Assembly: GCF_044324875.1 (NCBI RefSeq)
Contig: NZ_CP172185.1
DNA from: Escherichia coli
Lineage (GTDB): Bacteria > Pseudomonadota > Gammaproteobacteria > Enterobacterales > Enterobacteriaceae
Length of the DNA stretch: 64,000 nt
Strand: one strand, 5' to 3'
Both the position numbers and the translations under genes were made by a program. This document shows positions 46,436 through 52,877 of this stretch, one piece after another; position 1 is the first letter of the stretch; each line of letters starts with the position of its first letter. The notes under the pieces were generated by a model. The model had not been told where the DNA came from, did not search any database, and saw only the letters and a program-made list of their open reading frames with translations.

Positions 46436-46752
46436 AAATTCTCCTGTAAAACGCGGAATATACCGTACCTCTTAGCGGGGAAAAACAGGGTTATGCGGCA
46501 ACGTCGAAATTAAATGTGATCTGCCACGCCTTTTATCACAAAAGTGTCTCCGGAAGTACGATGCAAATTTGCCTGGCAAAATAAGGATAATCAACATATT
46601 ACGAATCGCTGCACACCTGTGCTGATGACTACTACGCAGAGAAACAAATGTGCAAGAGAAAGCGCTATTTCTCCCCATGCAAAGAGTGAAAAATCGCTTT
46701 GAAAGGCCCTCATGATGGGGTTATATCAGATCAAGCGGTGAGAAAGCGTATT

Positions 46753-46766
46753 TGCACAAATGTGCA
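46753..46766. promoter_or_regulatory. Perfect 14-bp palindrome TGCACAAATGTGCA upstream of sorC, candidate operator
   Basis: Inverted repeat seen directly, about 17 bp upstream of the sorC ATG; function inferred. Confidence 0.4.
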
Positions 46767-46782
46767 GAACCAGGAGGCGGCA

Positions 46783-47730
46783 ATGGAAAACAGTGACGAT
46801 ATCCGTTTGATTGTGAAGATTGCCCAACTCTATTACGAACAGGATATGACGCAGGCGCAAATCGCGCGCGAACTGGGTATTTACCGCACCACCATCAGCC
46901 GCTTGCTTAAACGAGGCCGCGATCAGGGAATTGTCACCATCGCCATCAACTATGACTACAACGAAAATCTCTGGCTGGAGCAGCAACTGAAGCAAAAGTT
47001 TGGCCTGAAAGACGTTGTGGTGGTGTCGGGAAATGATGAGGATGAAGAGACTCAACTGGCGATGATGGGGTTACACGGCGCGCAACTGCTGGATCGCTTG
47101 CTGGAACCTGGCGATATTGTCGGTTTTTCCTGGGGTCGCGCGGTGAGCGCACTGGTTGAAAACTTGCCGCAGGCGGGGCAATCGCGGCAGTTAATCTGCG
47201 TACCAATTATTGGCGGACCGTCCGGTAAACTCGAAAGCCGCTATCATGTAAACACATTAACCTACAGCGCGGCAGCGAAGCTGAAAGGGGAATCGCATCT
47301 CGCGGATTTTCCGGCTCTGCTGGATAACCCATTAATTCGTAATGGGATCATGCAGTCTCAGCACTTTAAAACCATCTCTGCCTACTGGGATAATCTGGAT
47401 GTCGCCCTGGTGGGAATTGGCTCACCGGCCATTCGCGACGGCGCTAACTGGCATGCGTTTTATGGTGGTGAAGAGAGTGACGACCTGAATGCCCGCCAGG
47501 TTGCTGGCGATATTTGCTCGCGCTTTTTTGATATTCACGGCGCAATGGTTGAAACGAATATGAGTGAAAAAACACTCTCTATCGAAATGAATAAATTAAA
47601 GCAGGCACGATATTCCATTGGCATTGCCATGAGTGAAGAAAAATACAGCGGAATAGTTGGTGCACTGCGTGGAAAATATATTAATTGTCTGGTAACGAAT
47701 AGCAGCACAGCTGAACTATTACTGAAATAA
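46783..47730 (+). CDS. sorC: SorC-family transcriptional regulator of the sorbose operon (track ORF starts at 46699)
   Basis: Translation MENSDDIRLIVKIAQLYYEQDMTQAQIARELGIYRTTISRLLKRGRDQGIV... (N-terminal HTH plus sugar-binding domain), 315 aa; AGGAGG Shine-Dalgarno. Confidence 0.85.
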   Translation: MENSDDIRLIVKIAQLYYEQDMTQAQIARELGIYRTTISRLLKRGRDQGIVTIAINYDYNENLWLEQQLKQKFGLKDVVVVSGNDEDEETQLAMMGLHGAQLLDRLLEPGDIVGFSWGRAVSALVENLPQAGQSRQLICVPIIGGPSGKLESRYHVNTLTYSAAAKLKGESHLADFPALLDNPLIRNGIMQSQHFKTISAYWDNLDVALVGIGSPAIRDGANWHAFYGGEESDDLNARQVAGDICSRFFDIHGAMVETNMSEKTLSIEMNKLKQARYSIGIAMSEEKYSGIVGALRGKYINCLVTNSSTAELLLK

Positions 47731-47799
47731 AAATCTTCCCGATGTTTACCGTAATAAAAATTACGGCGGGTCCCTATTATCTAAAAACAGGAGTCTGTT

Positions 47800-48606
47800 A
47801 TGCAAACGTGGTTAAATTTGCAGGATAAAATCATTATCGTCACCGGCGGCGCATCCGGTATAGGTCTGGCGATTGTAGAGGAATTATTAGCACAAGGCGC
47901 GAATGTACAGATGGTCGATATTCACGGTGGCGATGGACAATATGAAGGTCATAAAGGCTATCAGTTTTGGCCGACCGATATTTCCAGCGCCAAAGAGGTA
48001 AATCATACGGTAGCAGAAATTATCCAGCGTTTTGGTCGCATCGACGGTCTGGTTAACAACGCCGGGGTCAATTTTCCGCGTCTGCTGGTCGATGAGAAAG
48101 CGCCTGCCGGGCAGTATGAACTCAACGAAGCTGCATTCGAAAAAATGGTCAATATCAACCAGAAAGGCGTTTTTCTGATGTCGCAGGCGGTGGCGCGACA
48201 GATGGTCAAACAACACGATGGCGTGATTGTGAATGTTTCCTCAGAAAGTGGGCTGGAAGGCTCAGAAGGCCAAAGCTGTTACGCCGCGACCAAAGCCGCG
48301 CTTAATAGCTTCACGCGATCCTGGTCGAAAGAATTGGGTAAACACGGTATCCGTGTAGTCGGTATCGCGCCGGGGATTCTGGAAAAAACCGGGCTACGCA
48401 CGCCGGAATATGAAGAAGCGCTGGCGTGGACGCGCAATATCACCGTCGAGCAGCTGCGTGAAGGCTATACCAAAAACGCCATTCCTATTGGGCGCGCCGG
48501 AAGATTAGCAGAAGTCGCTGATTTTGTTTGTTATCTGCTGTCTGAACGCGCCAGCTACATCACCGGAGTAACCACTAACATTGCGGGCGGCAAAACGCGC
48601 GGATAA
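47800..48606 (+). CDS. sorD: Short-chain dehydrogenase, sorbitol-6-phosphate dehydrogenase-like
   Basis: 268-aa translation MQTWLNLQDKIIIVTGGASGIGLAIVEELL... with Rossmann TGGASGIG and the gene order of the Klebsiella sor operon. Confidence 0.8.
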   Translation: MQTWLNLQDKIIIVTGGASGIGLAIVEELLAQGANVQMVDIHGGDGQYEGHKGYQFWPTDISSAKEVNHTVAEIIQRFGRIDGLVNNAGVNFPRLLVDEKAPAGQYELNEAAFEKMVNINQKGVFLMSQAVARQMVKQHDGVIVNVSSESGLEGSEGQSCYAATKAALNSFTRSWSKELGKHGIRVVGIAPGILEKTGLRTPEYEEALAWTRNITVEQLREGYTKNAIPIGRAGRLAEVADFVCYLLSERASYITGVTTNIAGGKTRG

Positions 48607-51215: not shown

Positions 51216-51266
51216 TTCTTCGCCCCGGCACGACTGCCGGGGCCATCGCTCAACATGAGGTGGTTT

Positions 51267-52496
51267 ATGAAAACAACAGCTCTGCGTCTTTATGGTAAAC
51301 GTGATTTACGCCTGGAAACCTTTGATCTTCCTGAAATGCAGGAGGATGAAATCCTCGCGGCGGTGGTCACTGACAGCCTGTGCCTCTCTTCCTGGAAAGA
51401 GGCCAATCTGGGTGAAAACCATAAAAAAGTACCCGATGATGTGGCGACCAATCCCATCATCATCGGCCACGAATTTTGCGGCGATATTCTGGCCGTGGGT
51501 AAAAAGTGGCAGCACAAATTCCAGCCGGGTCAGCGTTATGTGATTCAGGCCAACCTGCAATTCCCTGACCGCCCGGATTGCCCCGGCTACTCCTTCCCGT
51601 GGGTAGGCGGCGAAGCGACGCATGTGGTTATTCCCAACGAGGTCATGGAACAAGATTGCCTGCTGGCATACGACGGCGAAACCTATTTTGAAGGCTCGCT
51701 GGTTGAACCGCTTTCCTGCGTGATTGGCGCGTTCAACGCCAACTATCATCTTCAGGAAGGTAGTTATAACCACACGATGGGGATTCGCCCGCAAGGGCGC
51801 ACGCTGATCCTCGGCGGCACCGGACCAATGGGACTGTTGGCGATTGATTATGCGCTGCATGGACCCATTAACCCGTCGCTGCTCGTCATTACCGATACCG
51901 ACAACGATAAATTGAGTTATGCGCGCAAGCACTATCCATCAGAATCGCAAACACTGATTCATTATCTCAATGCCACCGATGCAGCATTTGATACGTTAAT
52001 GGCGCTGAGTGGCGGTCACGGCTTCGATGATATTTTCGTCTTTGTGCCTAATGAAGGACTGGTGACTCTCGCCTCTTCCTTGCTGGCGACAGATGGTTGC
52101 CTGAATTTCTTCGCCGGACCGCAGGATAAACATTTCAGCGCGCCAATTAATTTCTACGATGTGCATTATGCATTTACCCACTACGTGGGCACGTCAGGCG
52201 GCAATACCGATGACATGCGCGCAGCAGTCAAATTGATTGAAGAGAAAAAAGTGCAGGCCGCAAAAGTGGTAACACATATTCTTGGGCTGAATGCCGCGGG
52301 CGAAACCACGCTTGAATTGCCTGCCGTCGGCGGCGGCAAAAAGCTGGTGTATACCGGGAAATACCTGCCGCTTATGTCACTCACGCAGATTCAGGATCAA
52401 GCACTGGCGGCAATTCTGGCGCGTCATCAGGGGATCTGGTCCGGTGAGGCGGAGCAATATCTGCTCACTCATGCAGAGGCAATTTCCCATGATTAA
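51267..52496 (+). CDS. sorE: Zinc-dependent alcohol dehydrogenase family, sorbose-1-phosphate reductase-like (start could be ATG 51255)
   Basis: Translation MKTTALRLYGKRDLRLETFDLPEMQEDEILAAVVTDSLCLSSWKEANLGENHKK...; last gene of the sor cluster. Confidence 0.8.
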   Translation: MKTTALRLYGKRDLRLETFDLPEMQEDEILAAVVTDSLCLSSWKEANLGENHKKVPDDVATNPIIIGHEFCGDILAVGKKWQHKFQPGQRYVIQANLQFPDRPDCPGYSFPWVGGEATHVVIPNEVMEQDCLLAYDGETYFEGSLVEPLSCVIGAFNANYHLQEGSYNHTMGIRPQGRTLILGGTGPMGLLAIDYALHGPINPSLLVITDTDNDKLSYARKHYPSESQTLIHYLNATDAAFDTLMALSGGHGFDDIFVFVPNEGLVTLASSLLATDGCLNFFAGPQDKHFSAPINFYDVHYAFTHYVGTSGGNTDDMRAAVKLIEEKKVQAAKVVTHILGLNAAGETTLELPAVGGGKKLVYTGKYLPLMSLTQIQDQALAAILARHQGIWSGEAEQYLLTHAEAISHD

Positions 52497-52655
52497 TCGC
52501 GCTACTTAACTCTGCATGTCGCTGGCTGGTCGCCGCGGCAACTTCGCGACCGGATGTGCGGCTGATTGCTGAAGCAGCACAATTTGCATGAGAAGGATAA
52601 AAAATATCAGCGCCTTAAGGGGCGCTCAAATTGGTGGCAAAGTACACATTGTTTA

Positions 52656-52762
52656 TGCCGGATGCGGAATGAAGCCTTATTCGGCATACATAATCTCGAA
52701 AATTCAATATATTGCAGTTATCTGGTAGGCCTGGTAAGCGTAGCGCATCAGGCAATGCTGTG
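52656..52762. repeat. REP/BIME palindromic units between sorE and pepE
   Basis: GCCGGATGCGGAATGAAGCCTTATTCGGCATAC and GGTAGGCCTGGTAAGCGTAGCGCATCAGGC. Confidence 0.75.
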
Positions 52763-52877
52763 TTTGTCATCAGTCTCAGCGCCCGGTGCAATACGTGACA
52801 TCGTGAGCCATGTCAGTAAGTGGTTAAATTCGCAGTGGTAGCATGCCTTCCGTGATTTCTTACTAACCGGAGAAGTA

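Follow-up and report, generated by a model that had tools for sequence, protein, structure and literature searches.

The window analyzed here is a stretch of 64,000 nucleotides (nt) of Escherichia coli DNA, and our subject is the entire spacer between rluF and pepE (46436-52877, 6,442 nt), which is bounded by the rluF start at 46435 on the minus strand and the pepE start at 52878 and carries the seven genes sorCDFBAME. Judging from the sequence, we are highly confident that this region is an intact and probably functional copy of the chromosomal L-sorbose operon of E. coli. The operon is ordinary and already known; earlier work in this species has mapped, cloned and sequenced it and tested its function. 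The genes and their flanks are as follows:

rluF, 45563-46435, minus strand: left flank
sorC, 46783-47730, plus strand: 315 aa, SorC-family regulator (predicted activator with L-sorbose, repressor without it); PF04198 plus helix-turn-helix (HTH); 87.0% identity to 2W48
sorD, 47800-48606, plus strand: 268 aa, predicted D-glucitol (sorbitol)-6-phosphate dehydrogenase of the short-chain dehydrogenase/reductase (SDR) family; NF004817
sorF, 48616-49023, plus strand: 135 aa, predicted soluble enzyme IIA (EIIA) of the sorbose phosphotransferase system (PTS); TIGR00824 EIIA-man, 148 bits
sorB, 49023-49517, plus strand: 164 aa, predicted soluble EIIB of the sorbose PTS; PTSIIB_sorb; 86.9% identity to 1NRZ
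sorA, 49583-50380, plus strand: 265 aa, predicted membrane EIIC; TIGR00822/PF03609
sorM, 50391-51215, plus strand: 274 aa, predicted membrane EIID; TIGR00828/PF03613
sorE, 51267-52496, plus strand: 409 aa, predicted L-sorbose-1-phosphate reductase with a medium-chain dehydrogenase fold; RefSeq orthologue named sorE; weak ADH_N/ADH_zinc_N
pepE, 52878-53567: right flank

According to the list of open reading frames (ORFs) and a check of the sequence, all seven sor genes lie on the plus strand and contain zero internal stops. The intergenic gaps from sorC to sorE are, in order, 69, 9, -1, 65, 10 and 51 nt, and a plausible ribosome-binding site is found ahead of every start, that of sorC being AGGAGG at 46772-46777. 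ORFs, strand and gaps agree with an earlier note on this DNA, made by a model from the letters, which described a tightly packed seven-gene sor operon in one orientation between rluF and pepE. One detail of that note needs correction: sorF and sorB were said to share ATGA, whereas the junction TTCTGATGAAC actually reads TGATG, with the stop TGA at 49021-49023 and the start ATG at 49023-49025 overlapping by one base. A longer SorC of 343 aa, starting from TTG at 46699, was considered and rejected, as the ATG at 46783 agrees with the crystallised Klebsiella pneumoniae protein, with the start annotated in RefSeq and with the site of the AGGAGG; the extension would also overlie the conserved promoter described below. 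A scan with Rfam found zero RNA families within 46436-52877.

In gene order, Pfam and NCBIfam return HTH plus PF04198, SDR, EIIA-man, PTSIIB_sorb, EII-Sor, EIID-AGA and medium-chain dehydrogenase, matching the products described earlier and constituting the content of a Klebsiella-type sor operon, namely a regulator, an SDR, IIA, IIB, IIC, IID and a medium-chain reductase on one strand. The first product belongs to the SorC family, with PF04198 at residues 58-315 (270 bits), HTH at residues 11-52 and a full-length match to 2W48. The four PTS components belong to the mannose family (TC 4.A.6), PF03610, PF03830, PF03609 and PF03613 all being above threshold, and their translations show putative phospho-accepting histidine motifs, AHG near the N terminus of SorF and DDRLIHGQV in SorB. 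SorD passes the model NF004817 ('sorbitol-6-phosphate dehydrogenase subunit'), scoring 501 bits (cut-off, 304). NCBIfam returned no specific equivalog for SorE (weak inositol/threonine dehydrogenase models only) or for SorC (below the DeoR and LsrR cut-offs), and thus the assignment of these two rests on direct comparison and synteny.

Since family-level hidden Markov models (HMMs) are unable to split sorbose from mannose specificity, the products were compared directly with Sor and Man proteins; the direct comparison with K. pneumoniae covered SorC and SorB, and the other five were judged via syntenic Klebsiella orthologues and ManXYZ. SorC is 87.0% identical to the crystallised K. pneumoniae SorC (PDB 2W48) across 315/315 residues. 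SorB shares 86.9% identity (305 bits) with K. pneumoniae IIB-Sor (1NRZ) vs. 52.2% (171 bits) with E. coli IIB-Man. SorF, SorB, SorA and SorM are 74-80, 87-90, 93-95 and 93-95% identical, respectively, to their syntenic Klebsiella and Raoultella orthologues, and 30, 52, 63 and 62.5% identical to ManX, ManX, ManY and ManZ of K-12. SorD is 88-90% identical to its syntenic orthologues in the same two genera, and the figures for SorD, SorF, SorA, SorM and SorE against those of Klebsiella grimontii, Klebsiella michiganensis and Klebsiella oxytoca range from 77 to 95%. The genes are orthologous to those of the K. pneumoniae sor operon and not to a paralogous PTS; the earlier proposal to check the products against Klebsiella Sor proteins is borne out, and the outcome it named as damaging, a closer relationship to mannose PTS paralogues, did not appear. 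The mannose PTS ManXYZ has the same IIA, IIB, IIC and IID mannose-family architecture and shares the Pfam families, but IIA and IIB are fused in ManX and separate, as SorF and SorB, in the window. In addition, ManXYZ stands alone, while the sor PTS genes have those of SorD, SorE and SorC as neighbours.

K. pneumoniae sorCDFBAME consists of the same seven genes in the same order with nearly equal protein sizes, as stated in the earlier note. This operon was reportedly treated by Sprenger and Lengeler in 1984, by Wohrl et al. in 1990 and by Wehmeier and Lengeler in 1994. In other Klebsiella species the sor operon occupies the same chromosomal context, adjoining rluF; the Klebsiella-genus loci carry an intact sdhL after sorE, whereas only a remnant of that gene is left in the window. 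For E. coli CFT073, a nucleotide identity of ~78% with the K. pneumoniae sor operon and a similarity of 82-97% between the Sor proteins have been published (PMC2831201).

By analogy with Klebsiella and previously studied E. coli, SorF (IIA), SorB (IIB), SorA (IIC) and SorM (IID) would take up L-sorbose and release L-sorbose-1-phosphate. SorE would reduce the latter to D-glucitol-6-phosphate, which SorD would oxidise to D-fructose-6-phosphate for entry into glycolysis. SorC, the product of the first gene, is expected to act as a repressor without L-sorbose and as an activator with it, a dual role reported in the literature (PMC12817954, citing Wohrl et al., 1990). The sor operons of CFT073 (c4981-c4987), enteroaggregative E. 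coli 042 (Ec042-4384-4390) and sequence types ST131 and ST648 represent the same system (PMC2831201; PMC2808357; PMC12817954). Induction by L-sorbose, knock-outs and a knock-in have been reported, involving ST131 and ST648 (PMC12817954), and a cloned CFT073 fragment let DH5alpha grow on L-sorbose (PMC2831201). The cloning primers of the latter study map to 46437-46464 and 52497-52526 of the window. The whole CFT073 spacer is collinear with ours, both being 6,442 nt long, with a nucleotide identity of 97.2%; at the protein level, identity is 96.3-100% (SorE, 97.8%). The differences are allelic only and amount to 154 nucleotides but just 31 amino acids in total, including SorE L99F and P227S in the window, a ratio that points to purifying selection. 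All seven exact Sor proteins recur in public E. coli assemblies, the exact SorE being present in 164 E. coli contigs.

Upstream of sorC, a phylogenetic footprint, i.e. an alignment of the sorC upstream regions of 29 species, revealed near-invariant islands within otherwise diverged DNA. The candidate elements are the following:

46589-46601, plus strand: site resembling that of integration host factor (IHF), AATCAACATATTA vs. the IHF consensus WATCAANNNNTTR; AATCA...ATTA core conserved in the 29 species; candidate bending site
46611-46622, plus strand: upstream candidate SorC operator, palindrome GCACA-CC-TGTGC; inverted repeat I1
46645-46655, plus strand: second upstream candidate operator half-site, CAAATGTGCAA box, nearly invariant in the 29 species
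46699-46727, plus strand: candidate sor promoter, -35 TTGAAA at 46699-46704, 17-nt spacer, -10 TATATC at 46722-46727
46719-46734, plus strand: invariant block GGGTTATATCAGATCA, containing the -10 TATATC
46753-46766, plus strand: candidate repressing SorC operator, perfect palindrome TGCACAAATGTGCA (TGCACA-AA-TGTGCA); repeats D1/I1/I3

The IHF assignment has the consensus match as its sole basis. In the upstream candidate operator the GCAC...GTGC columns are kept in nearly all 29 species, and the palindrome at 46753-46766, which lies between the predicted transcription start (near 46733-46734) and the ribosome-binding site, is almost invariant in 29/29. Furthermore, CAAATGTGCA occurs twice in the 64 kb, both times in this control region, vs. 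0.32 occurrences expected. A consensus promoter scan of the operon gave fewer hits than shuffled sequences and missed the conserved promoter because the last base of its -10 element is C; consensus terminator hits in the operon were no more numerous than in shuffles. We infer a single promoter ~50 nt upstream of sorC with flanking GTGCA-type boxes, two upstream and one downstream of the start, and with the IHF-like site further upstream. Such an arrangement would fit the published dual activator/repressor function of SorC (Wohrl et al., 1990, in PMC12817954). The footprint thereby offers a candidate sor promoter and three candidate boxes for the founding member of the SorC family.

Between sorE and pepE, three further features were found:

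52489-52600, plus strand: sdhL remnant (pseudogene) of a shikimate-dehydrogenase-like eighth gene, of which 112 nt survive
52609-52626: GC-rich hairpin AGCGCC-TTAAGG-GGCGCT, 3' of the sdhL remnant, from the terminator scan
52657-52753, plus strand: pair of repetitive extragenic palindromic (REP) elements resembling a bacterial interspersed mosaic element (BIME); the first REP (52657-52690) is degenerate and is divided from the second (52725-52753) by an A/T-rich spacer

The earlier note placed a REP cluster at the right border of the operon (52656-52762), which consensus search and folds corroborate, but it overlooked the sdhL remnant between sorE and the REPs. The distance from sorE to pepE is 381 nt in the window vs. 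~1,086 nt in other Escherichia, the extra sequence being an 813-nt gene. The intact gene of Escherichia whittamii, Escherichia albertii and E. coli ST648 is matched at one end by window positions 52497-52546 and at the other by 52546-52877. The window copy is a pseudogene, since 112 nt are left, a premature TAA stands at codon 7 (52507-52509) and ~0.7 kb has been deleted internally near 52546; CFT073 carries the same nonsense codon and the same deletion. Like the intact gene, the remnant shares its first 8 nt, from the ATG onward, with the end of sorE, so that sdhL of Enterobacteriaceae appears translationally coupled to sorE. Intact SdhL is a full-length orthologue of Haemophilus influenzae HI0607 SdhL (PDB 1NPY; 360 bits) and scores 467 bits with NF009202; the ST648 and E. 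whittamii proteins align with HI0607 end to end (~270 aa), and the window copy falls outside this family. We know of no sorE-coupled context for HI0607. An intact sdhL follows sorE in >25 species, but in only 177/5,426 complete E. coli genomes, including IAI39 and ST648.

With respect to the hairpin, both strands are predicted to fold, the plus strand at -12.5 kcal/mol (z -2.4) and the minus strand at -12.0 kcal/mol (z -3.3). The plus strand has an A-run before the stem and a weak U-run after it, and there is a clear T-run on the minus strand, on account of which the structure looks like a terminator of leftward transcription. To our knowledge, there is no minus-strand gene between this hairpin and pepE. 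The hairpin probably ends the operon transcript. Both REPs also fold as hairpins and qualify as REP/BIME elements. That at 52725-52753 has one mismatch to the consensus and a second copy elsewhere in the window, while 52657-52690 is decayed in comparison with its E. whittamii orthologue, a perfect REP. In E. albertii, one locus (L041, 3526-4326) contains four tandem copies of the REP cluster with a partial sorE match.

Regarding the distribution of the operon, sor genes were detected at this site in 2,865/5,426 complete E. coli genomes, and a K-12-type empty spacer in 2,557; of the 5,425 genomes giving any match, only three belong to neither group. The adjacency of rluF and pepE in K-12, as given in the earlier note, was confirmed: in MG1655 the two genes are 211 nt apart and the sor genes are absent from the site. 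Both the polymorphism and the absence from MG1655 have been described before (PMC2808357; PMC2831201). According to another report, the share of sor-bearing genomes exceeds 86% in all phylogroups other than A (9.6%) and B1 (12.1%) (PMC12817954). The operon has been surveyed across tens of thousands of genomes and is discussed as a fitness or virulence marker of extraintestinal pathogenic lineages. The part of the spacer that sets the two alleles apart can be delimited as:

46472-52787: sor+-specific segment, 6,316 nt, in place of which K-12-type genomes have an unrelated 86-nt filler

Positions 1-35 of the K-12 spacer match 46436-46470 and positions 131-211 match 52797-52877, the latter match reaching back to position 122 in other Escherichia; the shared flanks end at 46470/46471 and resume at 52788-52797. 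The filler (3733-3818 of the K-12 locus L002) is present in a single copy and is at least 99% identical in 2,545/2,557 empty genomes. The empty allele is thus almost monomorphic, whereas the sor+ alleles are 96.9-99.1% identical to the window. A short-word BLAST search of the filler against 80 sor+ loci gave no match, and a distant BLAST search against all complete E. coli genomes returned just the 2,557 copies of the empty allele. Local alignment of the filler with sequences upstream of pepE in 24 loci, Salmonella among them, scored not significantly better than shuffle controls, and a likeness of the filler to the Salmonella pepE upstream region (TTACCTG..CACTTTC) was dismissed at z = 0.3. 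As a signature, the 86-nt filler and the segment 46472-52787 separate empty from sor+ alleles. In other Escherichia the locus shows decay or expansion; besides the E. albertii case above, partial matches were noted, with sorD covered to 66% in one genome labelled E. coli (L005, 4068-4598) and sorE to 60% in Escherichia sp. MOD1-EC7003 (L044, 10486-11226).

Several observations weigh against our interpretation of the locus, and they bear on the identity, the functionality and the history of the operon. As to identity, SorM also passes a 'mannose IID' subfamily model, and generic Pfam and NCBIfam models, which do not separate specificities, accept SorA and SorM as 'mannose/fructose/sorbose'. One could accordingly suppose a mannose-family PTS operon for another sugar (mannose, fructose, N-acetylgalactosamine) that has been mislabelled as sorbose. 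We regard this as exceedingly improbable in view of the 87% identity to two structurally known K. pneumoniae Sor proteins vs. 30-63% to ManXYZ, the pathway-specific dehydrogenases SorD and SorE within the operon, and the growth on L-sorbose conferred by the 97%-identical CFT073 fragment (PMC2831201). As to functionality, SorE L99F (codon 99, 51561-51563) alters a residue shared by all 34 orthologues compared, and P227S (codon 227, 51945-51947) one that is at least 90% conserved among them. The promoter and operator assignments, moreover, are drawn from conservation only, and Shigella reportedly retains sor DNA yet is sorbose-negative (PMC2831201, citing Lehmacher and Bockemuhl, 2007). A cryptic, non-functional operon of the Shigella type in this strain could also be argued from the decay of the adjoining sdhL and from the presence elsewhere in the window of ISSso4, an insertion sequence (IS) named from Shigella sonnei. 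However, all seven ORFs are full length and the substitutions relative to CFT073 are mostly synonymous. L99F aside, no change affects an invariant position, that of P227S being near-invariant, and beyond these two no Sor change was found at a position otherwise conserved in the 34 orthologues. Identical copies of each of the seven proteins are present in many E. coli assemblies, as already mentioned, and the candidate promoter and operator boxes are intact. Silencing of this kind is therefore unlikely, and we retain an intact sorbose operon that is probably functional.

The history of the locus was addressed by a cross-species scan with SorE as query and one genome per species. In ~30 enterobacterial species, belonging to at least eight genera, sorCDFBAME is divergent from rluF and upstream of pepE/yjbB, among them E. 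whittamii, E. albertii, Pseudocitrobacter, several Citrobacter, Klebsiella, Raoultella, Enterobacter and Cedecea. The divergence of the Sor proteins tracks that of the flanks; relative to K. grimontii, for example, Sor identities are 79-95%, and those of rluF, pepE and yjbB are 93, 89 and 90%. The GC content of the sor segment (51.0%) is close to that of the window (50.5%), no integrase or transposase ORF was found in 46436-52877, and the longest word shared by the borders of the segment is 6 nt, equal to the shuffle mean. If the K-12 arrangement were ancestral and sor a horizontally acquired island that entered between rluF and pepE in this lineage, this would account for the presence/absence polymorphism within E. 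coli, and for K-12 and Salmonella having no sor at the site. Acquisition has been treated as an open question (PMC13410766). It is also true that the loss does not take the form of a clean deletion: the empty allele has 86 nt that are missing from sor+ genomes and for which our searches detected no source, so it is no simple excision product. In Salmonella enterica, a DUF2058 gene lies between rluF and pepE (L090/L091, 5240-5779) and sor is absent, which shows that the interval is variable among genera. Even so, acquisition seems very unlikely to us, given the same position and orientation relative to rluF across these genera, the absence of a GC shift, integrase, transposase, tRNA and border repeat, the nearly monomorphic empty allele next to diverse sor+ alleles, and the prevalence of sor in each phylogroup except A and B1 (PMC12817954). 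The earlier description of a strain-variable metabolic island is consequently upheld for the variability and abandoned for the island. On the same grounds of conserved position, flank-like divergence, unremarkable composition and a near-monomorphic empty allele, the polymorphism is read as loss. We infer that the ancestral Enterobacteriaceae locus comprised sor together with sdhL; K-12 most likely lacks sor because the ancestor of the K-12-type lineages lost or replaced it, and not because the strain studied here gained it. In K-12-type strains, mainly of phylogroups A and B1, it looks like the 6.3-kb segment was swapped for the 86-nt filler in a single event. Loss is thus the favoured direction of a polymorphism for which recent papers leave gain and loss open.

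In a published study, sdhL was regarded as an ST648-only gene whose expression in that lineage is seen solely when L-sorbose is present (PMC12817954). Contrary to the view of an ST648-specific insertion, our comparison indicates that sdhL is an ancestral gene, which the ~0.7 kb deletion would have destroyed in most E. coli, including the present strain. As a tentative proposal, to which we give somewhat less than even chances, an ancestral eight-gene operon sorCDFBAME-sdhL was tied to ketohexose catabolism, and the sor-negative K-12-type state arose from one replacement event. If this were true, the orphan SdhL subfamily would be linked to ketohexose catabolism, and SdhL might use NAD(P)H to reduce 5-keto-D-fructose, or a phosphorylated form of it, and so feed the sorbose pathway. 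Reductases of 5-ketofructose do exist in the shikimate dehydrogenase family (PDB 7COK; PMC7954740). The remnant seen in most E. coli may serve as a genomic-context clue to the enzymatic function of SdhL.

Elsewhere in the window, the tyrB-alr interval (7965-12039) harbors a nested IS, in which ISSso4 (IS21 family; istA 8759-10405, istB 10179-11177) interrupts IS1397 (IS3 family). The nested element is absent from that site in all complete E. coli genomes of our collection, and the IS1397/ISSso4 composite was found at another site in one complete E. coli genome. To the left of the operon, the convergent stop codons of yjbD and rluF abut at 45562/45563 with zero spacer, whereas in K-12 they are separated by 132 nt with a GC-rich palindromic element. 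In GN06156, the E. coli genome that matches best, IS200C lies between pgi and yjbE, an insertion absent from the window (41475-41513). Finally, Rfam hits above the gathering score comprised a lysine riboswitch upstream of lysC (43400-43596), the small RNA STnc430 (41357-41505) and naRNA4 in a REP region (29524-29594).

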